From: an uncultured bacterium
Lineage (GTDB): Bacteria > Actinomycetota > Acidimicrobiia > Spongiisociales > UBA5794
Assembly: GCA_963777645.1 (NCBI GenBank)
Contig: CAVZRA010000013.1
Span: 86,514-150,513 of the forward strand
Direction: 5' to 3'
DNA length: 64,000 bases
Position numbers and translations under genes: made by a program. The notes below the pieces were generated by a model. It was not told the origin of the DNA, made no database searches, and was given only the letters and a program-made list of their open reading frames with translations. Shown one piece after another: positions 21,376 to 50,353 of the stretch. Numbering within the stretch: position 1 is the stretch's first letter; every line of letters begins with the position of its first letter.

Positions 21376-21418
21376 CCCGGCCCCACCACCTGCGACAACC
21401 GTCCTCTTGAGCTGTGCC

Positions 21419-28075: not shown

Positions 28076-28173
28076 GTTTGGTACTCCTCTTCGTCCCATC
28101 ATCGTGTCCGATCCTCCAAATGCTGTCTCCGATTGTCTCTGGCGTTGACGCGCCCTGGGGCTCGGAACTGTTG

Positions 28174-29586
28174 TCAATTCCGGAACGTTCGCCATGGTTC
28201 GAGTAGCCCCTCAAACCCCGCGGCAGCAACGAGGCCGGCAGCGCTCGCCCTGGTTTCTTCGAAGACAGCGTCCTCGTCAACGAGGGTGCATCTGCCGTCT
28301 TCGAGGATGACCTTGCCACCAACGACCGTATACGCGACGTCAGCCGGAGAAGCCGAGTAGACAACCGCAGCAACCGCCCGGTGAAGCGGGGTGTGATGGG
28401 GCCCCGACAACTTCACTACAGCCATGTCGGCCAATCGACCCGGTGCCAGGAAGCCTGATTCGATGCCTAGAAAGGCGGCACCCTCGCGGGTGGCCAGCTC
28501 GATAGCCTCCTCCCCGTTGGAGACTGTCGTTTCCTGGTTGTGCACACGCTGCAGCAGCACGGACTGCTTCATACATGAGAACATGTCGAGACGGTGACCG
28601 CTGCCGCCATCGAGGCCGAGACCGACCTTTGCCCCTGCGCCTCGAAGATCGCGCAACCGCATCACCCCGAGTCCCATGTACTGGTGCGAGATGGGGCAAT
28701 AGGCAACTCCGGTTCCCGTCGCCCCGACCCGTTCCACTTCGCGATCATCAAGGAATATCCCATGGGCGAGGGTGGCCCCATCGCCCAAGAGACCCTGGTC
28801 GTAAAGCCAATCGGCCGGCCGGACACCATACTCGTCGAGGTAGTACACCGGATCGGTGCTGGCTTCCGAGCAATGAGTATGCCAGCCGGTTCCACTCTCC
28901 CGAGCAAGGTCAACCGAGGCACGCATCAGATCCTGGTCAACATAGATGACATTCACCGGGGCCGGCCACACACCAACCTGAGAGCCCGGTGGACGCTCCT
29001 CAATGCACTCGCGGGTAATAGCCAATTCATCGGCCGCCGAATAGCAGAAGATCTCCCCGGCAAGATTGTGACGCCGGGCGATATCGGTCGGATCGCCCAT
29101 GATTCCGCGGGCCACCGCCCCACGCAGCCCAACCTCCTCGATCGACGTGGCGACCCCGAGCGTCGCCACGGCATCGGTGGGTGCATAGTGGTGATCGAGA
29201 ACGGCAGTCACCCCGGAATGTGCGGCCTCGATGGCTCCCAGCTTGGCGCCCAAGACGGCATCGGCTGGAGTGATCGCATCCGCAAGGGGCCATATGAATC
29301 CTGACAACCATGGCCACAGCTCCATGCCTTCGCCCAGGCCCCGCATCAGGTACTGGAACAGATGCTGGTGGGTGTCGACAAAACCCGGCAACACCACCAT
29401 CCCGGCCGTATCAATCCGACGATTCGCCTGCCATCCGGAAAAATCCTCGGCCGGGCCTACTGCAACGATCCGGTCACCAGTCACCGCAACCGCACCAGGA
29501 TCAAAGACGTGCCTTGCGTCATCGACGGTCACCACGGAGCCGCCGATCAGGAGAAGCTCACACCGGTCGGTATCGTCGGGCCTCAA
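28174..29586 (-). CDS. TRZ/ATZ-family amidohydrolase (guanine/8-oxoguanine/MTA-deaminase-like)
   Basis: 'VLPGFVDTHQHLFQ' and 'WHTHCSE'. TTG 29586 is preceded by GGAGGAGGAG. The tracked ATG at 29661 would place operator-like site F2 inside the gene. Confidence 0.75.
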   Translation of the reverse strand: MRPDDTDRCELLLIGGSVVTVDDARHVFDPGAVAVTGDRIVAVGPAEDFSGWQANRRIDTAGMVVLPGFVDTHQHLFQYLMRGLGEGMELWPWLSGFIWPLADAITPADAVLGAKLGAIEAAHSGVTAVLDHHYAPTDAVATLGVATSIEEVGLRGAVARGIMGDPTDIARRHNLAGEIFCYSAADELAITRECIEERPPGSQVGVWPAPVNVIYVDQDLMRASVDLARESGTGWHTHCSEASTDPVYYLDEYGVRPADWLYDQGLLGDGATLAHGIFLDDREVERVGATGTGVAYCPISHQYMGLGVMRLRDLRGAGAKVGLGLDGGSGHRLDMFSCMKQSVLLQRVHNQETTVSNGEEAIELATREGAAFLGIESGFLAPGRLADMAVVKLSGPHHTPLHRAVAAVVYSASPADVAYTVVGGKVILEDGRCTLVDEDAVFEETRASAAGLVAAAGFEGLLEPWRTFRN

Positions 29587-29614
29587 AGCTCCTCCTCCAA
29601 GAATCGGCGGGCAA

Positions 29615-29631
29615 TATTGATGATAGTAATA
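29615..29631. promoter_or_regulatory. Operator-like site F2: TATTGA-TGATA-GTAATA
   Basis: 10 of 12 matches with a perfect left half. It lies 29 nt upstream of the proposed TTG start of the amidohydrolase. Confidence 0.35.
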
Positions 29632-29718
29632 CCGGATGGTCCGGACCGCAACCCCCGCCAAGCACCGACTGGTACACCGCGATCCGGTCCCTCAGTCTCG
29701 AGAACGAGATCCACGAGA

Positions 29719-29805: not shown

Positions 29806-31026
29806 TTGAAGATCCTCTTTGCCGATTCTTTCGATAAGTCCGCGCTCGCCACGCTCCAAGCGCACGGGCACGAATGCAGGTCCGAGCCTGGCTTGACCGC
29901 AGACGACCTCCCAACAGCGTTGGGCGGTGCCGACGCTCTGGTGGTGCGAAGCACCAAGGTAACGGCAGCGGCGCTGGAATCATCAGATTCGCTGCGACTC
30001 ATCGTACGCGCAGGCGCCGGAACCAACACAATCGATAAGCAGACTGCGGCCAATCGGGGGATCTATGTGTGCAATACCCCCGGCAAGAACGCGGTCGCGG
30101 TTGCCGAACTGACAATGGCGCTCCTGCTGGCGATAGATCGCAGGCTTCCCGACAATGTTGCTGCGCTGCGCGACGGACGATGGGACAAGAAGAGGTTCGC
30201 CAAGGCCCAAGGTCTGTTCGGCAAAACAATGGGCATCATCGGCCTGGGAGCAATCGGCCTCGAAGTAGCGGTCCGGGCCAAGGCCTTTGGGCTCGACGTA
30301 CTGGTGATCGCCAAAGATCGGCCCGCCCCGACAGTGAAGCGCATCGAAGAAATCGGGATCCGGGTAGTCGATAACCTCGACGAGCTATTGGCCAGTAGCG
30401 ATATCGTCTCCATTCACGTCCCGCTGAGCGAGGCTACCCATCATCTGGTGGATACCGCCTTCCTGGGCAAGCTACGCGACGGGGCGTGGATAATCAACAC
30501 GTCGCGCGGAGACATCGTCGACGGACCGGCACTGCTGGAAGCAGTCGAAAATCGCGGCATGGCAGCCGGCCTTGACGTATATCCCGACGAACCGTCCTCT
30601 GGCCAGGCGGATTTTGAATCGGAACTTGCTCAACACCCGGCCATCTACGGCACTCACCATATTGGTGCCTCTACGGAGCAGGCACAGCAAGCAATTGCCG
30701 ACGAGGTCGTCGAAATCATCCAAGCCTTCGAGAACGGTCGGGTTCTGAACTCGGTCAACACCGAAACACATCCGGTCGGCTCTACAACGTTGGTCGTCCG
30801 CCACCGCGACCGGGTTGGTGTGCTCTCCTCCGTTCTTGCTCTCCTGAAGAACGCGGGCATCAACATCGAACAGATGGAGAATGCAATCTTTGCAGGCGCC
30901 AACGCGGCGTGTGCCACCCTCCATGTTGCGGGGTCCGTTGACGCAGATCTGTTGAATCTCATCTCCGCACAGGACGGCATCATCCAAGCCATTGCACGAG
31001 AAAAGAGCGGAAGAACCAAACCATGA
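29806..31026 (+). CDS. serA: D-3-phosphoglycerate dehydrogenase-type 2-hydroxyacid dehydrogenase with C-terminal ACT-like domain
   Basis: 'RAGAGTNTID' and 'GIIGLGAIGLEVA' (NAD fold). The C-terminal segment of about 80 aa is ACT-like. TTG start. The gene is followed by serC with an ATGA overlap. Confidence 0.8.
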   Translation: MKILFADSFDKSALATLQAHGHECRSEPGLTADDLPTALGGADALVVRSTKVTAAALESSDSLRLIVRAGAGTNTIDKQTAANRGIYVCNTPGKNAVAVAELTMALLLAIDRRLPDNVAALRDGRWDKKRFAKAQGLFGKTMGIIGLGAIGLEVAVRAKAFGLDVLVIAKDRPAPTVKRIEEIGIRVVDNLDELLASSDIVSIHVPLSEATHHLVDTAFLGKLRDGAWIINTSRGDIVDGPALLEAVENRGMAAGLDVYPDEPSSGQADFESELAQHPAIYGTHHIGASTEQAQQAIADEVVEIIQAFENGRVLNSVNTETHPVGSTTLVVRHRDRVGVLSSVLALLKNAGINIEQMENAIFAGANAACATLHVAGSVDADLLNLISAQDGIIQAIAREKSGRTKP

Positions 31027-32102
31027 GAATCTTCAACTTCAGCGCCGGCCCATGCACGCTTCCCCTTCCCGTCCTCGAAGCCGTTCAAGCCGAGTTCGTC
31101 GATTACCGGGGCTCGGGAATGTCGATGGTGGAAATGAGCCACCGCACCGCCCCATACGACGAGGTGCATCAAAGCGCCACTGGCCTGGCCAGAGAGCTCT
31201 ATGGCGTCCCCGATGGCTTCGACGTCATCTTTGTCCAGGGAGGAGCGACGATGCAGTTCGGCATGGTGCCGATGAACCTGCTCGCCGACGGCTCACGAGG
31301 TGCGTACGTTGACACGGGTATATGGGCCACCAAGGCATTCAGGGACGGCTCCCACCACGGTGACGTCTACACCGCGTGGAGTGGCGCCGACCTCGCATAC
31401 TCCAGGGTCCCCTCGTCTGACGAGATTTCTGTTGCAGGCAACACTCGGTACCTCCATATCACCAGCAACGAGACAATCGGTGGAGTTCAGTTCAAGGAGT
31501 GGCCTGAAGTTCCGGTTCCACTGGTCGCCGACATGTCGTCGGACTACATGAGCCGCCCGATTCCTTGGGAGAAATTCGATCTCGTATACGGCGGAGTCCA
31601 GAAGAACCTGGCGCCTGCGGGGGCAGCTCTGGTGTTCATCCGCCGTAGCATTCTCGAGGAAACCAATAGAAACCTCGCGTCATATTTCCGATACGACATA
31701 CATGCGAGCAAGGACTCGATGTACAACACCCCACCAGTGTTTCCCATTTATGTGATGGAAAAAGTATTGCGCTGGATGAAGGACCAGGGCGGTCTCTCCG
31801 CAATGGAAACGGCCGCTAATCAACGCGCCGAACTCATCTACAGCACAATCGACGGAAGCGATGGTTTCTACACCAACCCGATCGATCCTGTCTGTAGGTC
31901 CAATATGAATGTCGTGTTCCGGATCGCAAACAACGATCTCGAATCCCGGTTCGTGGCCGAGGCGGCTGCCAGGGGTATGTCGGGCCTGAAGGGTCACCGT
32001 AGCGTTGGTGGCTGTCGCGCCTCGATCTACAACGCGATGCCGCAGGCCGGAGCCGAGGCATTGTGTGACTTCATGTTGAACTTCCAGCGTGCCGCTGGCT
32101 GA
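31023..32102 (+). CDS. serC: Phosphoserine aminotransferase
   Basis: 'FNFSAGPCTLPLPVLE...MSHRT' and 'GGCRASIYNAMP' are typical SerC motifs. Confidence 0.9.
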   Translation: MRIFNFSAGPCTLPLPVLEAVQAEFVDYRGSGMSMVEMSHRTAPYDEVHQSATGLARELYGVPDGFDVIFVQGGATMQFGMVPMNLLADGSRGAYVDTGIWATKAFRDGSHHGDVYTAWSGADLAYSRVPSSDEISVAGNTRYLHITSNETIGGVQFKEWPEVPVPLVADMSSDYMSRPIPWEKFDLVYGGVQKNLAPAGAALVFIRRSILEETNRNLASYFRYDIHASKDSMYNTPPVFPIYVMEKVLRWMKDQGGLSAMETAANQRAELIYSTIDGSDGFYTNPIDPVCRSNMNVVFRIANNDLESRFVAEAAARGMSGLKGHRSVGGCRASIYNAMPQAGAEALCDFMLNFQRAAG

Positions 32103-32108
32103 GCCCCG

Positions 32109-33290
32109 GTGGACATTCGGCCTCTCGATATCATGCTGGTGGATCCCGAGGTCGCGCCACAGGTGGCGGTGCCGGCGTACGACCTATTGTCAACGGCGGA
32201 TCGCCATCGCATCCTGTCGGGTGAACCCCTCAGCTTCCTCAACGCAATCAGGCTTCCCGAGGATTACCGACAGGGTATTGAGCGTGGAGCCGATCGTCAT
32301 CTGCGGGACTCTCAAACCGCGCTCCGGCGCATGGTCGCCGATGGGGTGTTCCGACGGACTGGTGGACCATCCCTGTTCATCTATCGGCTGACGACCGAGA
32401 ACCACCAGCAGACCGCGGTCGTAGCCGCCGTTCCGGTGCAGGCGTACAACGAAGGATTGGTTCTACGCCATGAAGAAACGCGAGATGAGAAGCTGGCCGG
32501 GCTGCGCAGCTACATCGAGAACGTCAAAGCAAGTTCATCTCCAGTGTGTCTCGCATATCGGCCGGTTCCGGAGATCGACGAGCTAGTCGCCACCATCGTC
32601 TCGAGGGAGCCTGAAGTCGACTTTGTCGCGTATACCGGGACTCGTCAGGAGATCTGGACGATTACAGATATTGTGATCGTCGGCCAGATCATCGGGCTGT
32701 TTCGTGACGTTCCACGGATGTACATAACCGATGGCCACCATCGCGCCGCCGCAACCGCCTGCGTCGACCCGGAATCCACCATTCTGGCGGCGATCTTCCC
32801 AACCGACCAGCTCCAGCTGGTGGCCTACCATCGCTGCCTACGCGATCTGGGTACCGAGACCACGGCCGGTCTCCTCGGACGACTGGCTGAAGCGTTTGAC
32901 ATAGAGACCCGTCCAGCCACCGAGAGACCCCCGGCTCCGGCGCCCGGCAAGATCGTGATGTGCCTGGATGGCAATTGGCACCAACTCACTCGTCGCGACA
33001 ACGCTGACGATCTCGATGTCGTCGTGCTACAGGACCGTATTCTCGACCGTATATTGGGCGTCGCTGACCCGCGCTCCGACCCAAGACTTGCGTGTGTGAC
33101 TTCGCGCATCGATGCAGACGCAATAGGAAGATGGGTCAACAACGGGGTGTACGACGTCGCCTTCCTGCTGCATCCGATGTCTCTGGATCAACTAATGGCC
33201 GCCTCCGAAGCCGGTTCCATGCTTCCGCCTAAGTCGTCTTGGTTCACTCCCAAGGCAGGCTCCGGGATCTTCCTACGGTTTGACGGATAG
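32109..33290 (+). CDS. DUF1015 domain protein
   Basis: 393 aa with a GTG start. 'YITDGHHR' and the overall layout match DUF1015, which I recall as commonly linked to serA/serC. Confidence 0.7.
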   Translation: MDIRPLDIMLVDPEVAPQVAVPAYDLLSTADRHRILSGEPLSFLNAIRLPEDYRQGIERGADRHLRDSQTALRRMVADGVFRRTGGPSLFIYRLTTENHQQTAVVAAVPVQAYNEGLVLRHEETRDEKLAGLRSYIENVKASSSPVCLAYRPVPEIDELVATIVSREPEVDFVAYTGTRQEIWTITDIVIVGQIIGLFRDVPRMYITDGHHRAAATACVDPESTILAAIFPTDQLQLVAYHRCLRDLGTETTAGLLGRLAEAFDIETRPATERPPAPAPGKIVMCLDGNWHQLTRRDNADDLDVVVLQDRILDRILGVADPRSDPRLACVTSRIDADAIGRWVNNGVYDVAFLLHPMSLDQLMAASEAGSMLPPKSSWFTPKAGSGIFLRFDG

Positions 33291-33581: not shown

Positions 33582-34295
33582 ATGACAGCACAGGAGATAC
33601 TCAACGGCCTGAAGCAGGCCGTAGTCGACGGAGACGAGGGCGATGCTGCTGCGTTTGCTGCGCAGGCAATCGAAGCCGAGATCAAGCCAATGGAAATCAT
33701 CCAGGGTGCAATCAACCCTGCGATGGACGAAGTCGGCCAGGCGTTTGAAGACGGTGATGCCTACCTCCCCGAGCTGATCCTCGCCGGTGATGCCGCAAGG
33801 GCCGCCCTCGATTTGATCATTCCAACCATCTCGGCAGACGATCTCGAAGGAGCTGTACAAGGAACCGTCGTCATCGGCACCATCTACGGCGATGCCCATG
33901 ACATCGGCAAGAACATCGTGTCTGCGATCCTGGCGGCGCATGGCATCAAAGTCATTGACCTCGGGATCAACGTCTCACCCAAGCAGTACATCGAAGCAGC
34001 AATCGCCGAAGATGCGGACATAATCGCCATCTCGTCGCTAATCACCACATCGCTGCCATATCACCGAGAGGTCATCAACACGCTTACCGATCGTGGCGAA
34101 CGCGACAAGTTCTTTGTCATCGTCGGCGGCGGTCCCGTCACCCCGGAGTGGACCGCGCAGATCGGCGCGGACGGCTATGGCCGTGACGCTCGAGACGCGG
34201 CACTCGTCGTAACCCAGTTACTAGAAGGGCTTGCCGCAGGAAACACAGCGCCGCTCGCCAAACCGGTGCTCGTCGGCGTACTGGAGCACGGTTAG
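33582..34295 (+). CDS. Cobalamin-binding corrinoid protein (MtmC/MtgC-like), cassette 1
   Basis: A four-helix cap is followed by the B12-binding motifs 'GDAHDIGKN' (DxHxxG), 'SSLITTS' and 'VIVGGGPV'. ATG 33582 follows AAGGAGAGAGG. Confidence 0.85.
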   Translation: MTAQEILNGLKQAVVDGDEGDAAAFAAQAIEAEIKPMEIIQGAINPAMDEVGQAFEDGDAYLPELILAGDAARAALDLIIPTISADDLEGAVQGTVVIGTIYGDAHDIGKNIVSAILAAHGIKVIDLGINVSPKQYIEAAIAEDADIIAISSLITTSLPYHREVINTLTDRGERDKFFVIVGGGPVTPEWTAQIGADGYGRDARDAALVVTQLLEGLAAGNTAPLAKPVLVGVLEHG

Positions 34296-34437
34296 GAGTC
34301 TGGTCGACAATCGTCATGGCGACTCGCAGCCGCAACGAAACCCGCGATCTGTCCCTGCACCGATAACCCTGAACCGAGGATATCCAACACACTCCTAGGA
34401 AGCGGAGAAACCAATATGAAGAACAAGCCAGACATCC

Positions 34438-35802
34438 TTGAGATCCTGCAGCCGCGCCCAGACCGGCGAGTACTGCACCCAGAAACAATGGGACACCAAA
34501 AAGATCCCGCTAACAATTCGCAACATACTCAAGGAACACGGCCTGCAGAAGACGTGTGACATGGAGAACCCTGTCAACACGGACATGGAACTCGCCGACA
34601 AGTTCTACGCAGCCGGCTATCAGGCGGCTTTGGAACTCGGCTACCTGTGCACAGACACCGACCGCATCATCAGCGTGTCCAAAGAGGAACTCGACAGCGC
34701 GCTGAAGCATGCACCGGCTGAACTCACGGTTGGCGAAGGAAAGGATGCAACGGTTCTCAAGGCAAGGACGCCTTCCGATCCCTATCCGATGAAGGCTGCG
34801 ACATCTCTGGGGATCACCCTGTCGGAAGATATCTACGCGGACATGGCTTTCTTGATTGCGAGTGAACCCGAGGTGGACATCCTCGAAGCTGGTTCGCTTA
34901 CGACGGTTCACGGCTATGAGGTGCTGTCAGGGACACCGATTGAGACCCGGATGGGCTACGAGCACGGTGTTATGCATCGCGAGGCCCGCCGCAAGGCCGG
35001 TCGGCCGGGTATGGGAGGAATGGGAAGCATCAGTGCCATCACCGAATATGGGCAGTTCGGTGCCTATGGAACGCCAGGCGGCTTCCGCAACACCGACCTT
35101 GCTCTGATTCTCTTCCCATCTGAGATGAAGGTCGACTACCGCACACTGCACAAGGTCGTCCACACCCTCAACATGGGTGGAATCATGAAATGTGACTCCC
35201 CCGGAATGATCGGCGGCATGCCCGGCCCGGCCGAAGGCGCCGTCGTCTCCAGCATTGCCTGTGCACTGCTTTCGTACGCCATTCTGCAAACCCATGTCGG
35301 TGGAGGCGAGATATACGACGTCCGGTACCTCGCCACCGTCAACCGCGAAGGACTCTGGGCTCTCAGCATGACGAACCAAGCGCTGAGCCGTAACACTCAT
35401 ACGTTGGTCCACAACATCTCCAACCAGGTTTCTGGTCCCGGCACCGAGAACTTGCTTCGTGAGATCGCCGCTGGAGTATCGATAATTGCAGCGTCCGGCG
35501 CCTCGCTGACCACGGGGCCCCGCAGCGCTGGTGGCAAGCTCAACGACTTTGTCACTCCGCTCGAGTGTCGCTTCCTTGCCGAGGTGGCGCACGCCGCATC
35601 AGCTATGGAACTCAGCAAGGTCAATGAAGTCGTCAAGGCTCTGTTGCCCAAGTATGAGGACTCGATCAAGGACCCGGACCTGGGTGTGCCGTTCCAGAAG
35701 GCCTACAACATGGAGACGCTCGAGCCAACTCCAGAATGGGAAGCAGCGTACCGCAAGGTCAAGGCCGAGTGCATCGAGCTCGGGATTCCACTCGACGCTT
35801 GA
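34438..35802 (+). CDS. MtmB-family (monomethylamine-methyltransferase-like) methyltransferase without pyrrolysine, copy 1
   Basis: Collinear with archaeal MtmB as I recall it ('GEYCTQKQWDTKKIP', 'GYLCTDTDRI', 'AGRPGMGGMG', 'SGPGTE'). There is no in-frame TAG. The tracked ORF starts at TTG 34438. The likely true N-terminus 'MKNKPDILEILQ' starts at ATG 34416 in frame -1 relative to the body, which implies one extra base near 34452. Confidence 0.8.
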   Translation: MRSCSRAQTGEYCTQKQWDTKKIPLTIRNILKEHGLQKTCDMENPVNTDMELADKFYAAGYQAALELGYLCTDTDRIISVSKEELDSALKHAPAELTVGEGKDATVLKARTPSDPYPMKAATSLGITLSEDIYADMAFLIASEPEVDILEAGSLTTVHGYEVLSGTPIETRMGYEHGVMHREARRKAGRPGMGGMGSISAITEYGQFGAYGTPGGFRNTDLALILFPSEMKVDYRTLHKVVHTLNMGGIMKCDSPGMIGGMPGPAEGAVVSSIACALLSYAILQTHVGGGEIYDVRYLATVNREGLWALSMTNQALSRNTHTLVHNISNQVSGPGTENLLREIAAGVSIIAASGASLTTGPRSAGGKLNDFVTPLECRFLAEVAHAASAMELSKVNEVVKALLPKYEDSIKDPDLGVPFQKAYNMETLEPTPEWEAAYRKVKAECIELGIPLDA

Positions 35803-35837
35803 TCCGGTGAAGTCCTGAGATTGGAGATCCAGCAGAT

Positions 35838-36689
35838 ATGAAGACAACGATCACCAGCCGTTCCAAGAGCGTTGCGATCGATACCGACGGTCCCGTCACC
35901 ATGATCGGTGAGAAGATCAACCCGACCGGTCGCAAACGTTTGGCGGCGGCATTGACGGAGGGAGATCTCGACTACGTCGTCGGTCTGGCAGTACGTCAGG
36001 TCAATGACGGGGCCGACATCATCGACATCAATGTTGGTGTGCCCGGACTCGATGAAGTCAAGGCCATGCGCGACGTCGTCGCCGCTGTCACGGATGCAGT
36101 GGATGTTCCGCTGTGTCTTGACTCACCAAGCCATGAGTCCGTAGCGGCTGGTCTTGCCGCCTGTCAAGGTCGTCCCCTGATCAATTCGGTCAGGGGCGAG
36201 GAAACTTCGATGAACGAGATCCTGCCGCTCGTCAAGGAGTACGACGCCTCAGTCATCGCACTCCTTCTGGACGAGGATGGAATCCCGGAAACGGCCGAGG
36301 CGCGAGTTGCGGTTGCCAAGAAGATCATCGACAGAGCCGATTCCATGGGAATCCCGCTCGAGAGCATCGTCATTGATCCGCTCGTGCTCACAGTGGGATC
36401 GGATAGCAACGCCGGCAAAATCACGCTCGACACCATTGAAATGCTGACAGCCGAATACGGCATCAACATCAATCTCGGTGCCAGCAATGTGTCGTTTGGG
36501 CTTCCGGATCGTCATACGCTCAATCAGGCGTTCCTGGGACTGGCAATCGGTGCAGGAGCTTCGTGCCTCATCACCGATGTAGCCAAGATGGCTCCAACAA
36601 TCCACGCCGCCGATCTCCTGCGCGGCCGCGACAACCACGGGATGAGATACATCAAGTACTTCCGGGCCCACGCCCCCAAGGACGACTGA
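35838..36689 (+). CDS. Methyl-THF:corrinoid methyltransferase (pterin-binding, MtgA/AcsE/MetH-domain-like)
   Basis: 'IGEKINPTGRKRL', 'DIIDINVG', 'PLINSV' and 'GASNVSFGLP' are typical of the pterin-binding barrel. Confidence 0.85.
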   Translation: MKTTITSRSKSVAIDTDGPVTMIGEKINPTGRKRLAAALTEGDLDYVVGLAVRQVNDGADIIDINVGVPGLDEVKAMRDVVAAVTDAVDVPLCLDSPSHESVAAGLAACQGRPLINSVRGEETSMNEILPLVKEYDASVIALLLDEDGIPETAEARVAVAKKIIDRADSMGIPLESIVIDPLVLTVGSDSNAGKITLDTIEMLTAEYGININLGASNVSFGLPDRHTLNQAFLGLAIGAGASCLITDVAKMAPTIHAADLLRGRDNHGMRYIKYFRAHAPKDD

Positions 36690-36694
36690 CAACT

Positions 36695-37375
36695 ATGGCC
36701 GTACGGCGAGGCTGGGTGCTCGAATACGACGTCGATGACGTCGTACGCAGCCAGTCCGCCGATCCGGCTGCCATTCGAGTTCGTCGACCAAAGCTGATCG
36801 AGCTATCCGAGCGAGCGCTCGACGAGGGACGCACCCTCATCGAGCCCCTGGTGTTGATGAAGCGAATCCCTGTCGAGAGAAGTCGACACAACCGGATTAC
36901 GCTCGCAGACGGTAACCACCTTTCCGGGCCGCTCATCACAGAGCACCTTGGTGGTGCTGACGAGATTGTGGTCCTGCTGTGCACAATCGGAGACAAGCTC
37001 GGCAGACGCGCACTCGCCAAGAGCGAAGCGAACGTGAGCTATGGCTTTGCCCTCGATGCCGTCGGATCGGCAGCGGTCTATTCCCTCAACGCGGCCGCAT
37101 GCAACGTTATCGAACAGGAGGCGATCAGCGCAGGGCTCCAAACCAGCCTTCCCCTCAGCCCGGGGATGGAGGGGTGGGGTGTTGACCCGGGACAGCGCGA
37201 GCTTTTCGAGCTGATCGACGCAGACGAAGTAGGCGTGACCCTCTCCCCCACGCTGGAAATGAGGCCACTGAAGTCTCTCTCCGCCGTCATCGGTGTCGGC
37301 GCCGACATCGCCACCAAGGGAGCCATCTGTGACTACTGCGCGCTGCACGACACCTGCCGCCACCGCATCGCCTAA
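36695..37375 (+). CDS. Stand-alone MetH activation-domain-like protein (Met_synt_B12)
   Basis: 'LSPGMEGWGVDPGQRELFELIDADEVGVTLSPTLEMRPLKSLSAVIGVG' resembles the AdoMet-binding reactivation domain. The C-terminal Cys cluster is 'CDYCALHDTC'. Confidence 0.65.
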   Translation: MAVRRGWVLEYDVDDVVRSQSADPAAIRVRRPKLIELSERALDEGRTLIEPLVLMKRIPVERSRHNRITLADGNHLSGPLITEHLGGADEIVVLLCTIGDKLGRRALAKSEANVSYGFALDAVGSAAVYSLNAAACNVIEQEAISAGLQTSLPLSPGMEGWGVDPGQRELFELIDADEVGVTLSPTLEMRPLKSLSAVIGVGADIATKGAICDYCALHDTCRHRIA

Positions 37376-37405
37376 CAAGGATTCAGCAAACAGGATGGGA
37401 CAACA

Positions 37406-37978
37406 ATGACGAAGCCGGAAGCCTTCGAGGCCCAGACCGAGGCTCTTCGCTTCGGTGACCGCAAGGAGAAGGGAATCTGGAGGAAGATCAGGTTCCTTAT
37501 TCAGGATCACCCGACACCGTTGGTGTGGACTTGGAAGCTGGCCGAGGCCATCCTCAAACGTATGGGCGGTCTGTTCGAAAAGGTGGGAGTCAAGCGTGCG
37601 TCGCGCTGGACGAAGCCTATCGAAGAGCTTGTCAAAAAGCCGCTCTTTGACTGTCAGATGTGCGGTCAGTGCATCCTCCATTCCACCGGCATGACCTGCC
37701 CCATGACTTGCCCGAAACAACTCCGCAATGGCCCATGTGGCGGGGTTCGCATGGATGGCAAGTGTGAGGTCAAGCCGGAGGCCGATTGCATCTGGGTGAA
37801 AGCCATCGAACGGTCGGCTAAGACGAGCTACTCGCTAGAGATCGGCAAGCTCAATCCCCCTGTTGATTGGCAACTGCACAAGGCAGCATCCTGGGTGACC
37901 ATGGCAATCGGGCGCGATCAGGTGGTCACCGGAAGCGGCAGCGGCCCACACCACGCTTCGGAGGTCATCTCCTCGTGA
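37406..37978 (+). CDS. metV: MetV (methylene-THF reductase C-terminal-domain, Cys-rich subunit)
   Basis: 'CQMCGQCILHSTGMTCPMTCPKQLRNGPCGG' matches the MTHFR_C zinc-ribbon-like motif. Confidence 0.75.
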   Translation: MTKPEAFEAQTEALRFGDRKEKGIWRKIRFLIQDHPTPLVWTWKLAEAILKRMGGLFEKVGVKRASRWTKPIEELVKKPLFDCQMCGQCILHSTGMTCPMTCPKQLRNGPCGGVRMDGKCEVKPEADCIWVKAIERSAKTSYSLEIGKLNPPVDWQLHKAASWVTMAIGRDQVVTGSGSGPHHASEVISS

Positions 37979-38955
37979 CAACACCCCAGAACCAACCTTC
38001 GGGAAACATTGCCCCCTCGCAGAGTCGTCTCGCTCGCGTCCTCCAAGCAGGTCACTTTGCTCTTACTCTCGAGATCTCACCACCGGTCGGCCCCAACCGG
38101 GCGGCAGTCGATAGCCAGATCAAGCTGCTATCTGACTACGCCGATGCCTTCAATGTCACCGACAATCAATCAGCCCGAGTGCACGCCTCGAGCCTTGCGG
38201 TGAGCATCATGCTGAAGCAGGCGGGACTCGATCCCATACTCCAGGTGACCTGCCGCGACCGCAACCGGTTGGGTATCCAATCCGACCTGCTTGGCGCATC
38301 GATGTACGGCATCACTAATGTCCTCGCCCTCAGCGGAGACGCCCCCATATGGGGGGATCATCCGCAGACAAAGGGAGTCTTCGAGATCGACTCGATCAAT
38401 CTGGTCCGGATCTTGCGCATGATGCGCGACGACCAGGTTTTCGAAAACGGCAAAGGGATCCCCAAGATCGCTCCTGAGTACTTCATCGGTGCCGCAGCCA
38501 ACCCGTTTGCTCCTCCGCATGACTTTCGACCGGTTCGGCTGGCCAAGAAGATCGCAGCCGGAGCCGACTTCATCCAGACCCAATTGGTCTACAACGTGCC
38601 TCGCTTCCGAGAATATATGCGGCGCGTCGTTGACATGGGTCTTCACGAGAAGACTGCCATTCTGGCCGGAGTCGGCCCAATTCGGTCGGCACGAGGCGCC
38701 GAGTTCATGAAGAACGAGGTTGCCGGGATGGACATCCCGGACGAGATCGTCTCCCGTATGAAGGGCCTCGACAAAGAGAAGGCAGCGGAGGAAGGCGTCA
38801 ACATCTGCATCGAGATCGCTGAAGAAGTACGCCAGATCGAGGGCGTGCGCGGCCTCCACGTGATGGCAGTTTCGTGGGCCTCGATCCTTCCCGAGTTGGT
38901 GACCCGTCTTGGACTTCATCCCAGACCGGATGTCTCGCTGGAGACCGCAACTTGA
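37975..38955 (+). CDS. metF: Methylenetetrahydrofolate reductase
   Basis: 'FALTLEISPP', 'NVTDNQSA', 'TCRDRN' and 'NVLALSGD'. GTG 37975 overlaps the metV stop (GTGA). Confidence 0.85.
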   Translation: MTTPQNQPSGNIAPSQSRLARVLQAGHFALTLEISPPVGPNRAAVDSQIKLLSDYADAFNVTDNQSARVHASSLAVSIMLKQAGLDPILQVTCRDRNRLGIQSDLLGASMYGITNVLALSGDAPIWGDHPQTKGVFEIDSINLVRILRMMRDDQVFENGKGIPKIAPEYFIGAAANPFAPPHDFRPVRLAKKIAAGADFIQTQLVYNVPRFREYMRRVVDMGLHEKTAILAGVGPIRSARGAEFMKNEVAGMDIPDEIVSRMKGLDKEKAAEEGVNICIEIAEEVRQIEGVRGLHVMAVSWASILPELVTRLGLHPRPDVSLETAT

Positions 38956-39003: not shown

Positions 39004-39139
39004 CTCAAACTCTAGCCTTAGACCTACTAGACCGATTCATATGCGCAAGACACCCTCTCCAGTTCATCGGCACAGGCCGTCTCGGAGAGACCCAAAAGCA
39101 CATACCCGGTCGCTACAACCAAGGAGGAGAGGCGTGACC

Positions 39140-40216
39140 ATGAAGCGAATCGCAATCGTTTTGGTGGCCTTGGCCCTGGCAGTAACTGCCTGTGGAGGAG
39201 ACAACGAACCGTCAGAAACAACTGTCACCCCGGGTACCGAGACGACAGCAGCTACTGCCGAGACAACTGCCGCCCCGGATACCGCGACGACGGCAACGAC
39301 TGCGGAAACCGGTATCCGAGTCGCCCTGGTAACGCCGGGCGAGATCAATGACTTGTCGTGGAACCAGGTGATGTACGAGGGCGCAGAAGCTCTCAAGGCC
39401 GAGGGTCTGATCAGTGACTTTTCGTACACCGAACTGGTACCGGAGGGAGATGCCGAGCGAGCGATTCGTGGCTATGCCGAGGACGGCTATGACCTCATCG
39501 TCGCCCACTCATTCGGATATGGAGAAACGGCATTGGCCGTCGCCGCCGACTTTCCCGATACCGCATTTGCCTGGGCAGGCGGCATCGAAGGTCAAACCGG
39601 CAACCTCGCCGACTATGCACAGCCTTTCTACGAGGCCTATTACCTTGCTGGAATCCTTGCTGGTGGCGTCACGAAGACTGATGTGCTCGGCGGAGCCGGT
39701 GGCTTCGACATACCGGTTTGTCACTCGCTGATCGAAGCGTTCTACCTTGGCGCCCAGGAAGTCAACCCGGCTGTGCGCGGCGTAACAGCATACGTTGGCG
39801 ACTGGATTGACGTCGTCAAAGCCAAGGAAGCCGCAAGTGCTGCGGCGGCCGACGGCGCTGATGTGTTTGCAGCCTGCGGTGAAGGTCCTGTCCTGGGCCA
39901 GATCGAGCTGGCGAAGGAGCAGGGACTTTATGCCATCGGCTATGTCGGTGACATGTCATCCCTTGCCCCAGCCTCCGTCCTGGCCTCAGTGACATGGAAC
40001 ACCAAAGAACTCCTGCGGCCGATGATCGAGGACGTCATGGCCGGCACATTCACACCGGCGAAGTATTACTCAGTCGGCGTTGCAGACGACGGATTGATTG
40101 TGAAGATCAACCCCGAGCTCGAAGGTGATATCAGTCAAGCCGCCATGGATCTGTATACCCAGCGTCTCCAGGAGATCAAGGACGGGACATTCACGGTTCC
40201 ATTCATAACGGAATAG
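39140..40216 (+). CDS. BMP/PnrA-family ABC substrate-binding lipoprotein
   Basis: ATG 39140 follows AAGGAGGAGAGG. The lipobox is 'LAVTACGG', followed by a Thr/Ala-rich linker and a BMP-family body. Confidence 0.85.
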   Translation: MKRIAIVLVALALAVTACGGDNEPSETTVTPGTETTAATAETTAAPDTATTATTAETGIRVALVTPGEINDLSWNQVMYEGAEALKAEGLISDFSYTELVPEGDAERAIRGYAEDGYDLIVAHSFGYGETALAVAADFPDTAFAWAGGIEGQTGNLADYAQPFYEAYYLAGILAGGVTKTDVLGGAGGFDIPVCHSLIEAFYLGAQEVNPAVRGVTAYVGDWIDVVKAKEAASAAAADGADVFAACGEGPVLGQIELAKEQGLYAIGYVGDMSSLAPASVLASVTWNTKELLRPMIEDVMAGTFTPAKYYSVGVADDGLIVKINPELEGDISQAAMDLYTQRLQEIKDGTFTVPFITE

Positions 40217-40232
40217 TAGAACCCAGCCTGTC

Positions 40233-41716
40233 TTGACACAAATACCCCTACACGAAACGGATACCCCGGCCATCACGGTGACCGGGGTATCCCGACACTT
40301 TGGGCTCGTGCGAGCATTGTCCGACGTGAGCCTGGAGTGCCGCTACGGTGAGGTCCTTGCCATCCTGGGCGAAAACGGGGCAGGCAAGACAACGCTGATG
40401 AGGATCCTCGCCGGCTTGGATCAAGCCAGCTCCGGTCAGCTTCTCAAACGTTCCGAGCCCTACCGACCTCGCTCTCCGCGTGACGCGGTCAGTGCCGGAG
40501 TCACGCTGGTCCAGCAGCATTTTGCGCTGGTTCCAACGATGACCGCCGCAGAGAATATCCTCCTATTCCGCAGCCAACGCCGGATGCGTACGACCCGCGA
40601 TAAGGCTGCAAGCGATCTGGAAGCACTGTCGGCTCGACTTGGATTCAAGATCGATTCCGACAAGACCCGTTGGCGAGATGTCCGTGGGCGCACGGCAACG
40701 GCTGGAGTTACTGCGAGCCCTCGACTCCAATCCAGATGTATCTGCTCCTCGATGAGCCAACCGCGGTCCTGACCGATGCAGAATCCGATTCTCTTCTGGA
40801 GATCGTGCGGAGTCTTGCTCATGACGACAACCGATCAATTGTCTTCATCACGCACAGGCTCCGTGAAGTCGTCAAAGCTGCGGATCGCGTCGTCGTGCTG
40901 CGCAATGGCAGAGTCGTTGCACCCGGCGCACCCGTTGGTGAGCGGACAGCTGCAGAACTAGCGGGAGAGATGGTGGGCTCGGACGTCCACGATGCGATCC
41001 GCACGGCACAGCGTCTCGGCAAACCACGTCTGATCCTCGACGGGCTAACCGCCGCCGAAGTCGGTCCGATCAGCCTGATCGTCCACGAGGGAGAGGTGCT
41101 CGGAATTGCAGGCGTCGGCGGCAACGGCCAGACCGAACTCGAGGCGGTTTTGATCGGAGCCAGGCATTGCACCGGCGGAAAGGCCGACTTCGACGGAATC
41201 AGCTTGGCGGACATTCACCCGCGCCATCGCATCGCCAGCAACATCGCTGTACATCCCATCCGACCGCGACAAGACCGCACTCGTCGGGCCAATGCGCTGC
41301 GACGAGAACCTTCTGCTCGGGCGCACTACCCGCCTGGCGCGGCGTCACCGAGAAAGCGAAACCCCTTATGGACGAGTGGTCGGTGATTGGGTTGCCCGAG
41401 TTGGCGGCAAATGCCTTGTCAGGAGGCAACGCTCAAAAGCTGGTTGCCGCCCGTGAGATGGAAGGCGGCCCGGCATTGATACTTGCCTTCCAACCCACCC
41501 GTGGACTTGATCCGGGAGCCACCGCCTTCTCTACGCCAGGCTCTGCTCGACATGACTGCTGCAGGCAGCGCCGTTCTGTGGGTCTCCGCTGATCTCGACG
41601 AGCTTCTCTCGGTCTCCGATCGGATCATGGTCATGTTCTCAGGCAGCATCGCAGGCGAGTTCGAGCCACCGTTCGACCGTGGCGCGATTGGTCTCGCTAT
41701 GGCAGGTATGACATGA
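40233..41716 (+). pseudogene. Two-domain ABC ATPase (nucleoside/sugar type) interrupted by about 5 frameshifts
   Basis: Homologous segments run in frames 0,1,2,0,1,2 ('GENGAGKTTL', 'VGEMSVGARQRLELLRAL', 'LLLDEPTAVL', 'GVGGNGQTEL', 'YIPSDRDK', 'LSGGNAQK', '[10 protein letters not shown]'). The shifts are near 40668, 40741, 41249, 41340 and 41530, and each is resolved by deleting one base. The intact paralog is at 58480. Confidence 0.8.
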
Positions 41717-42852
41717 CCGTCGACGAATCGCACACTGACCCGCAACCACCTGCCGACGGTTTGACCAACTCGCTGCTACATCGCGGACTGCAATCTGGAG
41801 TATTCATCGTCCTTGGATCCGTCACGGCTGCACTACTGGTCGGGGCAATCCTCATCTTGTGGGTCGGGGAGAATCCTCTCAATGTCTATCGGGTCATCTT
41901 CACCGAATCCCTACTCAAGGCTACGGGCTGGCGTGACACGCTCATCCAGGCAACGCCTCTTGGCATCATCGGTCTTGGGCTTGCATTTGGCTTCCGGGCG
42001 GGCGTCTGGAACATCGGGGCAGAGGGACAGCTGATCGTTGGCACAGTCACGGCCATCGCCGTCGTTGGCCCGATGCGCGATCTGCCGGGCATCATCGTCA
42101 TTCCTGCCGGGCTTCTTGCTGCGATGGTGGGGGGTGCAGCCTGGGGAGCGGTGGCAGCATATCTTCATGTCAAGTTTGCGGTAAACGCTGTGATCGCAAC
42201 ATTACTGATGGTCTTCATCGCCGAACCGTTGCTCAACTGGGCAATCCGGGTCCCGTTGAAGGACCCGGCAACGTTCCTCCCGCAGAGCCGCACCGTAGGC
42301 AACGGGGCATTGCCCGAGATCTTCAACACGAACATGCATGTCGGGATCCTGGCACTCTTCGTGTTGGTTCCAGTCGCAGCCTGGGCAATGAACTACTCTC
42401 GGTTTGGCTACCTCGTACGCGCCCACGGGGCTAACCGTTATGCGGTCTACGCCAACGAAAGCCGGCCCGGCCGTCTTCCGTTCATTCTTCTCGCCCTCGG
42501 TGGATCCCTCGCCGGTGCAGCGGGATTCATCCAGCTGGCTGGAGTCCAGATGCGGGTTGGCAGTGGTACCGCCGCCGGGTTCGGCTTTACCGCGATCATC
42601 GTTGCCATTCTCGGTCGTAACCGTCCGGTTGGCGTGTTCTTGGCTGCCATCGGCCTTTCAGCGATGCTGGTAGGAGCAGAGGCAGCGCAACGCCTGCTCG
42701 GACTGCCGGTTGCGCTCACCCAATCGATCCAACCGATCATCGTGATATTCGTAGTTGCCGGTGAAGCCTTCAGTGCGCGTGCGCTGAAACGAGAGGCTGA
42801 ACGGGTAGCGGCAATCGCCGCAATCCAACTAGGAGCCGGGGCCCAGATATGA
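41713..42852 (+). CDS. ABC transporter permease (BMP-type system)
   Basis: 379 aa and multi-pass. It is paralogous to 60042-61187. ATGA overlap with the upstream ATPase reading frame. Confidence 0.85.
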
Positions 42853-43803
42853 TCCTTGGCCAAACCGACATCGTCTCGATCGCATTTTGGGCAACCGTGC
42901 TCGCCGCAGGAGTACGTCTTGCTGTCTCCGTCGGAATGGCTGCACTGGGTGAGATGATCAACGAAAGAGCCGGTGTACTCAACCTGGGTCTCGAGGGCGT
43001 CATGCTCATCGCTGGCTTCGCCGGGTTCGCTGCATCTTTCGAATCCGGCTCGCCATGGCTCGGTCTTGGAGTTGGATTCATCGTCGGGGGCCTGGTCGGT
43101 GCGCTATTCGCCTTCTTGGTCGTGGTACTTAGAGCCGACCAGGTCGTGACGGGCCTCGCTCTCACTCTTTTCGGTATCGCATTCACTGCTTTCCTGAATC
43201 GCGAGATCTATGGCGGCGGCAGTACCCCGCCACGGGCTCCTAAGCCGGGCGTGTGGGAGATTCCGATCTTGAAGAACATCCCGATTCTTGGCGAAGGATT
43301 GTTTAGCCAATCCCAGGTGGCGTATCTCGCAATCCTGATCACCGTGCTCCTTGTCGTGTACTTGCGGCGTAGCTACTGGACAATCGTGCTGGACGCGGTC
43401 GGAGAAGAGCCCCGAGCCGCTGACGCGGCCGGTCATTCCGTAGTAGTCGTTCGGTTTATCGCCACCGTTGCCGGCTCTTGTTTGGCTGGTCTTGCCGGAG
43501 CCCTTCTCATCGTCGGCCAACTCGGATTCTTCAACACCAACATCACCGCAGGGCGTGGCTTCATCGCCGTGGCCCTGGTTATCTTCGGTCGATGGCGACC
43601 GGGAGGCATCGCGCTCGGAGCGCTCCTGTTTGGCGCCCTCGACGCTCTTGCAGTTCCGCTTCCAAACTCTCGACACCGCTATCCCGTTCGAATTCTTTAT
43701 CGCGCTGCCCTTCGCCGTCACACTCATCGCCGTGGCGTTCGGCGCCAAGAGAGCCCGCGAACCATCTGCCCTCACAATCCCGTTCTTCCGAGAAACGGAA
43801 TAG
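42849..43803 (+). pseudogene. ABC transporter permease with one frameshift near 43650
   Basis: Frame 0 is good through 'GALLFGALDAL'. The true C-terminus 'QFRFQTLDTAIPFEFFIALPFAVTLIAVAF...' continues in frame +1 and ends at 43803. Compare the intact paralog, 'FLDGLQLSLQAVGFDLPYQLLLALPF'. Confidence 0.75.
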
Positions 43804-43867
43804 ACGGCCAATGCGTGGCAAGTTCGATACAAGACACGGAATCGACCAACATGACGGAGGGTACACA

Positions 43868-44621
43868 ATGGGAAAGCTAGAGGGACGGGTCGCGATAGTC
43901 ACCGGCGGTGCCGGTGTGATTGGTACCGCATATTGCAAAGGGTTCGCAGCAGAAGGTGCCGCCGTCGTGGTAGCAGATATGGCAGACGCGATCCGGGTTG
44001 GTTGCCGAGCTGAAGGCGGCCGGGCATCAGGCTCTGGCAGTGAAAGTCGATATCTCGGATGCCGCTTCGACTGAGGCAATGGCTAAGACGGTACTTGATG
44101 AATTTGGCAGGATTGATGATCTTGGTCGAACAACGCTGCCTTCTTCAAGTCCGTCACCCGTGGACCGTTCGAAGAAATCTCGGTCGAAGAGTGGGACCTG
44201 ACGATGGCGGTCAACGTGCGGGGCCCCTGGCTGTGCTGCAAGAGCAGTGCTACCGGCGATGAAGAAACAGGGTCACGGCCGAATAATCAACATCTCATCC
44301 AACGTCGTGTGGAAAGGAGTCCCCGGGTTCCTGCACTACACAACCTCGAAATCAGCCCTGCTCGGCTTCACCCGGGCCATGGCTCGCGAAGTCGGCGAGT
44401 TTGGTATCACCGTCAACAATGTGGCACCTGATTTCATCCCGGATGACGCGTTGCGCGCCCACCAGCCGGGCAACGAGGATGCCGTAAATGCACAACGTGC
44501 CATCAAGCGCACCTCCGTGCCCGAGGACATGGTGGGAACCGTTCTCTACCTGTCGAGCGATGACGCTTCGTTCGTCACGGGTCAGGCGATCTTGGTCAAC
44601 GGCGGCGCCTTCATGTATTGA
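43868..44621 (+). pseudogene. SDR-family oxidoreductase (FabG-like) interrupted by 3-4 frameshifts
   Basis: 'GRVAIVTGGAGVIG' (frame 2), 'VAELKAAGHQALAVKVDISD' (frame 0), 'NNAAFF...MAVNVRGPW' (frame 2) and 'GRIINISS...YTTSKSAL' (frame 0). Extra bases lie near 43997, 44124/44128 and 44246. Confidence 0.75.
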
Positions 44622-48895: not shown

Positions 48896-48898
48896 ACA

Positions 48899-50281: not shown

Positions 50282-50353
50282 GAGTTCCTATCCTCGGACC
50301 TATCTCGCTCAAAGCACGACTACGGTGCGTGAACGCCATTCAGAGGGCTTCCT

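Follow-up and report, generated by a model that had tools for sequence, protein, structure and literature searches.

A pyrrolysine-free MtmB-family methyltransferase in a methyl-to-tetrahydrofolate module, set among purine-type genes in an Acidimicrobiia genome

We analysed a 64-kb stretch of an Acidimicrobiia genome (the window, below) that carries a module of six genes, all on the plus strand (33582-38955). One of them encodes a protein related to the archaeal monomethylamine methyltransferase MtmB. This protein, MT1, is a genuine pyrrolysine-free member of the MtmB family, as judged by hidden Markov model (HMM), sequence and predicted fold. Together with its neighbours it very probably forms a methyl-transfer system, predicted from the gene content of the window, in which MT1, a corrinoid protein and a second methyltransferase (MT2) pass methyl groups to tetrahydrofolate (THF). 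The module lies within an island of purine-type genes, and homologues in other phyla share this kind of neighbourhood. We put the probability of the whole explanation set out below, in which the substrate would be a methylated purine-type base, at roughly 0.45. The six genes of the module are as follows.

33582-34295, plus strand: corrinoid protein 1, the methyl carrier, with DxHxxG present as DAHDIG at residue 104 (PF02310 98.5 bits, PF02607 70.9 bits)
34416-35802, plus strand: MtmB-like methyltransferase 1 (MT1), free of pyrrolysine (Pyl) (PF05369, PDB match, AlphaFold (AF2) model)
35838-36689, plus strand: pterin-binding methyl-THF:corrinoid methyltransferase, MT2 (PF00809 100.7 bits; NF005719 292.3 bits, cut-off 259)
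36695-37375, plus strand: TM0269-like (MetH-reactivation-like) protein, 226 aa (family profile against PDB 1J6R)
37406-37978, plus strand: MetV, the DUF5981 zinc-ribbon/Fe-S subunit of MetVF (PF12225 95.7 bits)
37975-38955, plus strand: MetF, methylene-THF reductase, with a GTG start (PF02219 139.9 bits)

An earlier note on this DNA had described six co-directional, tightly packed genes that make up a complete methyl-to-THF module, and the coordinates, strand and spacing were all reproduced here. The gaps, in order, are 120 nt (142 nt when measured to the TTG start of the MT1 open reading frame (ORF)), 35, 5 and 30 nt, followed by a 4-nt overlap (GTGA) between the MetV stop and the MetF start that is consistent with translational coupling. 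MT1, the corrinoid protein, whose DxHxxG motif the note had recognized, and the pterin-binding MT2 lie within one cluster (33582-36689) with gaps of at most 142 nt. The completeness of the module is borne out by an MT2 score above the NF005719 cut-off and by the MetV and MetF domains found. The corrinoid protein also scored 171 bits with TIGR02370, which is under the cut-off of that model.

The 'MetH-activation-like' label given earlier to the fourth gene product stands in the sense of TM0269 and at the level of a profile, but not in the sense of a Pfam assignment. The 226-aa protein had no significant Pfam match, the best being Met_synt_B12 with an E value of 0.056. Compared with PDB 1J6R (the T. 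maritima TM0269 'methionine synthase' chain), the protein alone gave an E value of 0.0012 and a profile of 12 orthologues gave 1.8e-16. Cys96, Cys212, Cys215 and Cys221 are nearly invariant in this family, with a C-terminal CxxCx5C arrangement, suggesting a metal or Fe-S site. The gene often directly adjoins one for the reductive activator RACo (for example, in loci L013, L024 and L038 of the homologue scan described below), and the two products may therefore act jointly in corrinoid reactivation.

The family assignment of MT1 draws on several kinds of comparison, all of which agree with the end-to-end collinearity with MtmB that had been noted before. The ORF at 34438-35802 (454 aa, TTG start) matched PF05369 with 268.6 bits (cut-off 25) over profile positions 8-449 of 450, which is full-length, and M. 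barkeri MtmB1 (PDB 1L2Q) aligned with MT1 at an E value of 6e-55 (residues 5-450 on 14-456). An AF2 model built from a 90-sequence alignment (pLDDT 95.3, pTM 0.94) could be compared with the MtmB crystal structures, as the note had suggested; Foldseek superposed it on 1NTH, 1L2Q and 1TV2 with a TM-score of 0.93 and an rmsd of 1.9 Å over 453 columns. The next matches, to MttB/MtgB, reached a TM-score of ~0.5 (about 0.46-0.52).

Alignment with MtmB1 places Pyl202, in its GRPGMGVXG motif, on Met195 (ORF numbering) of GRPGMGGMGS in MT1, the residue that had been proposed for this position. The reported absence of an in-frame TAG and of pyl genes was likewise confirmed: the MT1 ORF has no internal stop, no pyl-type domain was found among the ~55 ORFs of the 64-kb window scanned with Pfam, and no tRNA gene, tRNA-Pyl included, was found in the same 64 kb. 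TAG is an ordinary stop codon here, as it terminates 15 of the 44 window genes. Across 158 superfamily sequences, the GRPGM(G/P) motif ahead of the Pyl column is conserved and the column itself is hypervariable (Leu 24, Ile 21, Val 16, Gly 11, with others including Met and Asp); close homologues of MT1 carry Ile, Val or Trp. Met195 is thus not a family feature, and the idea of Met as a functional substitute for Pyl was rejected.

Many database 'proteins' of ~244-256 aa (P0204, P0212 and P0305-P0418) begin just after the Pyl position and correspond to the C-terminal halves of Pyl-containing MtmB genes that gene callers have split at UAG. One of these halves, P0204, shares 39-42% identity with the MtmB-like proteins of the window. 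Relatives that do contain Pyl may therefore lie at no great distance from these Pyl-free clades.

MT1, in its THF module, is a new member of a known and largely uncharacterized superfamily. The statement in the earlier note that no non-Pyl MtmB homologue had been characterized is out of date, as MtqB of Methanococcoides methylutens Q3c, a non-Pyl MtmB homologue (ACT9XH_RS04775), has been shown to demethylate tetramethylammonium and choline and also shows small monomethylamine demethylation (Kashyap et al., Front Microbiol, March 2026; PMC13044021). According to the same paper, it has been clear for years that non-Pyl MtmBs exist, and what they do is said to 'have remained elusive'; its tree holds 1,061 MtmB-family sequences, both Pyl and non-Pyl, most without an assigned function (PMC13044021). 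In another study, a non-Pyl MtmB-superfamily protein was the most up-regulated protein of dichloromethane-grown 'Ca. Formimonas warabiya' (PMC9768040). In strain DCMF of this bacterium, locus L078 carries XDH genes next to an MtmB homologue. By our count, the superfamily comprises 828 clusters at 50% identity (E up to 1e-3), among which the cluster of MT1 (representative 68% identical) is isolated, the next representative being 44% identical. Identity between MT1 and the full-length non-Pyl proteins nearest MtmB1 is only 21-31%, and it is beside MtmB1 that the MtqB paper puts MtqB. None of the 80 best genome matches to MT1 (down to 39% identity) was a Methanococcoides or Methanosarcina locus. 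The isolated cluster, the low identity and these genome matches speak indirectly against a place for MT1 in the MtqB clade.

The window contains a second MtmB-like set, at 48197-52424.

48197-48895, plus strand: corrinoid protein 2, with the motif DIHSIG (PF02310 and PF02607)
48899-50281, plus strand: MtmB-like methyltransferase 2, 460 aa (PF05369 227 bits)
50354-52424, plus strand: RACo/RamA-type reductive activator in two overlapping ORFs, 50354-51922 and 51657-52424 (RACo domains)

Judged from its sequence, the genome carries two putative three-component corrinoid-dependent methyltransferase systems with Pyl-free MtmB relatives. Each of the first two components is 41% identical (BLASTP) to its counterpart in the six-gene module, and MtmB-like protein 2 has Asp in the Pyl-equivalent column. 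The first RACo ORF contains Raco_middle, RACo_linker, Fer2 and positions 1-69 of RACo_C_ter, and the second contains positions 58-257 of RACo_C_ter. This split gene and the TM0269-like protein are the reductive-activator candidates of the window. The pairing of both window MtmB types recurs in loci L025 and L029. Taken as a whole, the earlier note was right in its observation and in the module it described but not in the novelty it gave to a non-Pyl MtmB, and it mentioned neither this second set nor a frameshift in the MT1 gene nor the purine-type neighbourhood, both of which are described below.

Pfam and NCBIfam scans of nearly all window ORFs placed the module in an island of ~50 kb, which includes three xanthine-dehydrogenase (XDH)-type enzymes, YgfK, purine-type deaminases, three AtzT/Bmp-type transporters, FolD, formate-THF ligase (Fhs) and FocA. 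The genes that surround the two MtmB-like sets are listed here.

11328-14975, minus strand: YgfK (TIGR03315 915.6 bits, cut-off 835.3)
15957-18575, minus strand: fused 2Fe-2S/Mo hydroxylase of the selenium-dependent-XDH (Se-XDH) type (TIGR03311 817.6 bits, cut-off 830.45)
18711-19604, plus strand: FolD, methylene-THF dehydrogenase/cyclohydrolase
21257-22057, plus strand: DUF1638 protein
22130-25634, minus strand: PucD-like XDH, Mo subunit 22130-24415 and FAD subunit 24807-25634 (TIGR03196 713 bits, cut-off 783.65)
25786-26655, plus strand: FocA-type formate/nitrite channel (PF01226 264.7 bits)
26945-29661, minus strand: Bmp-type binding protein (26945-28195) and second purine-type amidohydrolase (28174-29661)
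39041-43880, plus strand: Bmp/AtzT-type ABC transporter, with binding protein 39041-40216, ATPase 40233-41592 (three ORFs) and permeases 41713-42852 and 42849-43880 (PF02608 164.8 bits; ABC_tran fragments; BPD_transp_2)
44691-45771, between transporter and amidohydrolase: Rieske [2Fe-2S]/VanA_C-type oxygenase, broken here but unbroken in L006, where it has 359 aa
45809-47242, plus strand: purine/triazine-type amidohydrolase of the deaminase family (PF01979 166.7 bits)
52497-53219, minus strand: HTH_3 and Cupin_2 regulator
53203-56936, minus strand: XDH-family trio of Mo, 2Fe-2S and FAD subunits
57296-62127, plus strand: third Bmp-type ABC transporter, with binding protein 57296-58426, an ATPase and two permeases
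63241-63960, minus strand: formate-THF ligase (Fhs), C-terminal part, cut by the window end (PF01268 293.8 bits)

Several of these genes resemble ones for purine uptake and breakdown. The binding protein beside MetF (39041-40216) had AtzT (6PI5, E 4.6e-39) as its best PDB match, and AtzT was crystallized with guanine as the apparent original ligand (PMC6834077). For the amidohydrolase at 45809-47242, the nearest NCBIfam models were 5'-deoxyadenosine deaminase, 8-oxoguanine deaminase and SsnA, all under cut-off, and its PDB matches were AtzA, 8-oxoguanine deaminase and MTA/SAH deaminase. The three window amidohydrolases were closest to 8-oxoguanine, adenosine-type and triazine deaminases, with SsnA models scoring 160-184 bits against cut-offs of 444-455. 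For the Mo subunit at 53203-55383, the nearest models were 4-hydroxybenzoyl-CoA reductase alpha and XdhA, neither of which reached its cut-off. As described in two preprints, YgfK is the NADPH:2,8-dioxopurine oxidoreductase of a reductive uric-acid pathway in which XdhD/XdhAC convert urate to 2,8-dioxopurine (bioRxiv 10.1101/2025.04.24.650524 and 10.1101/2025.05.19.654654). YgfK and a Se-XDH-type enzyme, hallmark genes of this recently described reductive 2,8-dioxopurine pathway, are found here in an Acidimicrobiia genome.

To assess how far this neighbourhood is conserved, we used a homologue scan with one genome per species, which gave 75 loci; the 33 loci of at least 12 kb with an MtmB homologue at least 55% identical to MT1 are taken as the close clade. 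Homologues at least 56% identical to MT1 were found in Acidimicrobiia, Anaerolineae/Chloroflexia, Verrucomicrobiota/Kiritimatiellae and Spirochaetia, and relatives at 39-48% in Hadarchaeota, Clostridia, Peptococcaceae and Oscillospiraceae. Of these genomes, that of Acidimicrobiia bacterium UBA5794 comes closest (96% protein and ~85% DNA identity). A corrinoid gene lay near the MtmB-like gene in 53 of 53 loci, at a median distance of 47 nt. Among the 33 close-clade loci, 94% held a corrinoid protein, 64% an XDH large subunit, 61% an amidohydrolase, 64% a Bmp binding protein, 55% RACo and 33% the TM0269-like gene. The comparison of neighbourhoods in related genomes that had been proposed as a check was positive, with at least one of XDH large subunit, amidohydrolase and Bmp binding protein present in 97% of these loci. 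When all 56 loci of 12 kb or more are taken together, the nearest amidohydrolase gene lies a median of 956 nt away from the MtmB gene. By chance, a 21-kb window would be expected to contain such a gene in ~0.5% of cases per gene copy and a few per cent at most overall, compared with the 61-64% observed; this estimate assumes a few XDH, amidohydrolase and Bmp genes per 4-5 Mb genome and is not a whole-genome background. Unbiased clustering of all ORFs returned the same ranking of neighbours and added URO-D-type MT2, GntR/UTRA regulators and OTCase-type genes, the last in five related loci.

The linkage takes the shape of tightly spaced arrays on one strand in some other groups. In Spirochaetia the array runs on a single strand with gaps of at most 200 nt in the order Bmp-ABC-perm-perm-RACo-MtmB-CoP-DUF1638-XDH(FAD)-XDH(Mo)-URO-D, where CoP is the corrinoid protein. 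In Anaerolineales, XDH subunits and amidohydrolases are interleaved with MtmB, CoP and URO-D genes, with overlapping stops and starts. DUF1638, which lies inside the Spirochaetia array, is a recurrent companion of corrinoid methyltransferase genes (30% of clade loci). Up to four MtmB paralogues per locus, 28-36% identical to each other, occur among two or three corrinoid proteins (L005, L011, L032, L036, L037 and L043), and divergence of this degree suggests several different substrates rather than one. Substrate-specific MT1 expansions are known for MttB and for O-demethylases, and the multi-paralogue loci resemble these by analogy. The conserved coupling of Pyl-free MtmB with purine transport and catabolism in same-strand arrays appears to be undescribed. 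No literature linking MtmB with xanthine dehydrogenase or purines was found in the sources within reach, nor any linking corrinoid-dependent methyl transfer with methylated purines; subscription journals lay largely outside the search, which makes this weak evidence.

We propose a scheme in which each Pyl-free MT1 (34416-35802 and 48899-50281) would transfer the methyl group of a small substrate to Co(I) of its own corrinoid protein, and the pterin-binding MT2 would move it from the corrinoid to THF. Corrinoid that had been oxidized to Co(II) would be reactivated by RACo and the TM0269-like protein. MetVF, FolD and formate-THF ligase would then take methyl-THF to formate, for which FocA is a possible outlet; the oxidative direction of MetVF, already suggested in the earlier note, fits the presence in the window of FolD (18711-19604), formate-THF ligase (63241-63960, minus strand) and the FocA-type channel (25786-26655). 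The adjacent AtzT/Bmp-type ABC transporters would import the substrate. The demethylated base would go to the purine-type amidohydrolases for deamination and then to the XDH-family enzymes and YgfK, that is, into the reductive 2,8-dioxopurine route. As a matter of speculation, this route would consume reductants from methyl oxidation and could serve as the electron acceptor for MetVF. We infer which way the methyl group flows and in what order demethylation and hydroxylation occur, just as we infer the substrate class.

The purine-catabolic neighbourhood is the main clue to the substrate, on which the earlier note had made no proposal, and leads us to suggest, with a confidence just short of even, a methylated purine-type heterocycle such as a methylguanine, methyladenine or methylxanthine. 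A wider version of the proposal, which we hold a little more tentatively, is that a large branch of the MtmB superfamily may consist of O2-independent, corrinoid-dependent demethylases of methylated purines, including those of the caffeine type, with paralogues that split methyl positions or bases between them and are hard-wired into arrays of purine transporter, deaminase and XDH genes. This branch would span Acidimicrobiia, Chloroflexota, Spirochaetota, Verrucomicrobiota and Bacillota, with distant relatives in Hadarchaeota and Bathyarchaeia. To our knowledge, the characterized non-Pyl relatives act on nitrogen that is already cationic, as in glycine betaine, carnitine, tetramethylammonium and choline; a ring-N-methylated purinium or pyridinium could be the heteroaromatic counterpart of such substrates. 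In anoxic sediment, 13C from the N-methyl groups of caffeine reaches methane, and no enzyme was identified (bioRxiv 10.64898/2026.01.06.697959).

Several observations weigh against a methylated purine as the substrate. Support for the substrate class is indirect throughout. The Acidimicrobiia array itself has only the Bmp transporter as a direct neighbour, with the XDH-type genes at least 8 kb off. Scores for the amidohydrolases and for two of the three Mo enzymes fall short of the curated cut-offs. HyuA, YgeW, YgeX and YgeY were not seen among the ~55 window ORFs scanned with Pfam, and no RNA or riboswitch that would report a ligand was found at Rfam gathering thresholds in the window and seven related loci. 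The only characterized non-Pyl MtmB, MtqB, uses quaternary amines (PMC13044021). Finally, the MT1 gene is frameshifted at codon 12 and four further genes at 40-52.4 kb are broken, which could mean either that this copy of the system no longer works here or that the assembly contains indel errors.

Other substrates were weighed against this proposal. The MtmB-like proteins could be MtqB-like methyltransferases of quaternary amines (tetramethylammonium, choline and related onium compounds), with the purine-type genes forming a separate nitrogen-scavenging pathway that shares the island. The one demonstrated function of a non-Pyl MtmB homologue, that of MtqB on tetramethylammonium and choline (PMC13044021), points this way, as do the quaternary amines used by all characterized non-Pyl MttB enzymes and the distance of the XDH genes in the Acidimicrobiia array. 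We nevertheless consider it improbable, as a separate pathway accords poorly with XDH, amidohydrolase or Bmp genes at 97% of clade loci and with their single same-strand arrays in Spirochaetia and Anaerolineales. The scanned window ORFs also include no choline/TMA-related gene, MttB-family gene, BCCT or glycine-betaine-type transporter, MT1 shares only 21-31% identity with those non-Pyl proteins that stand nearest to Pyl-MtmB, and Methanococcoides and Methanosarcina are missing from its 80 best genome matches. An N-methylated pyridine-type substrate (trigonelline, homarine or 1-methylnicotinamide) would make the XDH enzymes nicotinate-dehydrogenase-like and the amidohydrolases enamidase-like ring-openers. 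The XDH family does include hydroxylases of nicotinate and other N-heterocycles, the Mo subunit at 53203-55383 has no purine-specific model above cut-off, and N-methylpyridinium compounds, which are cationic and common marine osmolytes, fit the non-Pyl pattern. What makes this reading doubtful is that YgfK scores above its equivalog cut-off, two Mo enzymes come within 2-10% of xanthine-dehydrogenase cut-offs, and the nearest matches of the amidohydrolases are aminopurine and triazine deaminases rather than enamidase; moreover, the closest solved relative of the binding protein, AtzT, held guanine (PMC6834077). It is also conceivable that the amidohydrolases free methylamine from N6-methyladenine, N2-methylguanine or alkylamino-triazines and that the MtmB-like enzymes use it without Pyl, given the small monomethylamine activity of MtqB (PMC13044021). 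The amidohydrolase is indeed the most tightly linked neighbour (median gap 956 nt) and belongs to a family that includes alkylamino-triazine hydrolases. This last route seems very improbable, however: Pyl is thought necessary for activating neutral methylamine, the hypervariable Pyl-equivalent column offers no conserved replacement nucleophile, and the number and divergence of paralogues per locus argue for several substrates.

A different kind of alternative concerns the condition of the genes. The conserved MT1 N-terminus, MKNKPDILEIL, starts at ATG 34416, preceded by a GGAGAA ribosome-binding site. An extra base near 34451, in codon 12 (CTGCAGCCG, compared with CTGCA-CCG in relatives), puts this ATG out of frame with the 454-aa ORF, and the ATG frame stops after 47 codons. 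Four relatives do not have the extra base: three Acidimicrobiia orthologues and one metagenome contig, which is 95% identical over 3,090 nt and for which this base is the sole gap. Programmed frameshifting at codon 12 was rejected on these grounds. Four more genes are split, namely those for the ABC ATPase (40233-41592), an SDR protein (43478-44621), the Rieske/VanA-type oxygenase (44691-45771) and RACo (50354-52424), and the first three are intact in the relative L006. No comparable breaks were noticed in large genes outside 34-52.4 kb. Either errors in the assembly or a local decay of the genes could explain these breaks. The MT1 gene may be decaying and non-functional in this genome, perhaps along with everything else from 34 to 52.4 kb and whatever the family does elsewhere, which we regard as a minority possibility, though one of some weight. 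Against decay, the other 454 codons of MT1 are intact and 99% identical to the intact homologue P0001 (locus L081), indels of this sort are typical of error-prone long-read assemblies, and the TTG at 34438 could still yield a protein missing only 7 residues.

Comparison with known systems helps to place the proposed methylated-purine demethylases. MT1 shares with M. barkeri MtmB the Pfam family, ~445 collinear residues, a predicted TIM-barrel fold (TM-score 0.93), the GRPGMG motif before the Pyl site and an adjoining gene for a cognate DxHxxG corrinoid protein. It differs in being only 28-33% identical, in having Met for Pyl, no UAG and no pyl genes in the window, and in belonging to a bacterial system whose downstream methyl acceptor is THF rather than coenzyme M (CoM); monomethylamine is an unlikely substrate for it. 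Like MtqB/MtqC, it is a Pyl-free MtmB-superfamily MT1 with its own corrinoid protein, and MtqB shows that the MtmB fold works without Pyl on a pre-formed cationic nitrogen. MtqB, however, is archaeal and feeds CoM and methanogenesis, whereas the window context is one of purine-type hydroxylases, deaminases and Bmp transporters; MtqB is also reported to branch beside Pyl-MtmBs, in contrast to the 21-31% identity of MT1 with the non-Pyl proteins closest to MtmB1. The overall plan (non-Pyl MT1, corrinoid protein, pterin-binding MT2, RamA/RACo and methyl transfer to the THF pool) is that of the glycine betaine:THF system MtgB/MtgC/MtgA of Desulfitobacterium hafniense and of MtcB, MtpB and MtyB. 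Unlike MT1, the MT1 proteins of those systems belong to the MttB superfamily (COG5598), with Foldseek TM-scores of only ~0.46-0.52, and their substrates are aliphatic quaternary amines. We know of no association of MttB-type systems with XDH-type genes.

If the substrate proposal is right, there would also be a functional parallel with NdmABCDE of Pseudomonas putida CBB5, the caffeine and methylxanthine N-demethylases, in that several paralogues would demethylate different purine ring nitrogens before xanthine oxidation. The Ndm enzymes are O2-dependent Rieske oxygenases that release formaldehyde, whereas the window system would use O2-independent nucleophilic methyl transfer by Co(I) to THF, and there is no homology between them. 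The island resembles reductive purine (2,8-dioxopurine) clusters in having YgfK above cut-off, with a fused Se-XDH-type enzyme beside it and SsnA-like amidohydrolases that both score under their cut-offs, and differs from them in that HyuA, YgeW, YgeX and YgeY were not found among the scanned window ORFs. No link to corrinoid methyltransferases turned up in the portions of the reductive-purine preprints consulted (10.1101/2025.04.24.650524 and 10.1101/2025.05.19.654654).

The neighbourhood turns an unknown substrate into a specific proposal, methylated purine-type bases, for one large branch of the superfamily that crosses phyla. If true, this would identify the missing enzymes for O2-independent N-demethylation of methylated nucleobases and methylxanthines, a process observed in anoxic sediments, and with them a new input to microbial C1 metabolism. 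It would further imply an undescribed route that ties the turnover of methylated nucleobases to purine degradation as well as to the C1 pool of THF (or CoM), and a broader chemical rule for why such enzymes manage without Pyl. Should the proposal of methylated purines fail, MT1 would add one more uncharacterized protein to a known superfamily, within a corrinoid-to-THF module of the standard type.

A few further features of the window touch the module less closely. The SerA-like, SerC-like and DUF1015 genes directly upstream on the same strand (29806-33290) were considered as part of the system and rejected; a link of DUF1015 is doubtful because it recurs near an MtmB homologue in only two other loci (L008 and L011). 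The Rieske/VanA class includes O2-dependent N- and O-demethylases, so the island may hold both oxygenase and corrinoid routes. The HTH_3 and Cupin_2 pair is also found directly downstream of an MtmB homologue in the Chloroflexota locus L003. At the other end of the window and unrelated to the module, S-layer homology domains occur in a subtilase with fn3 (887 aa) and in an N-acetylmuramoyl-L-alanine amidase (410 aa), both within 3539-7425.

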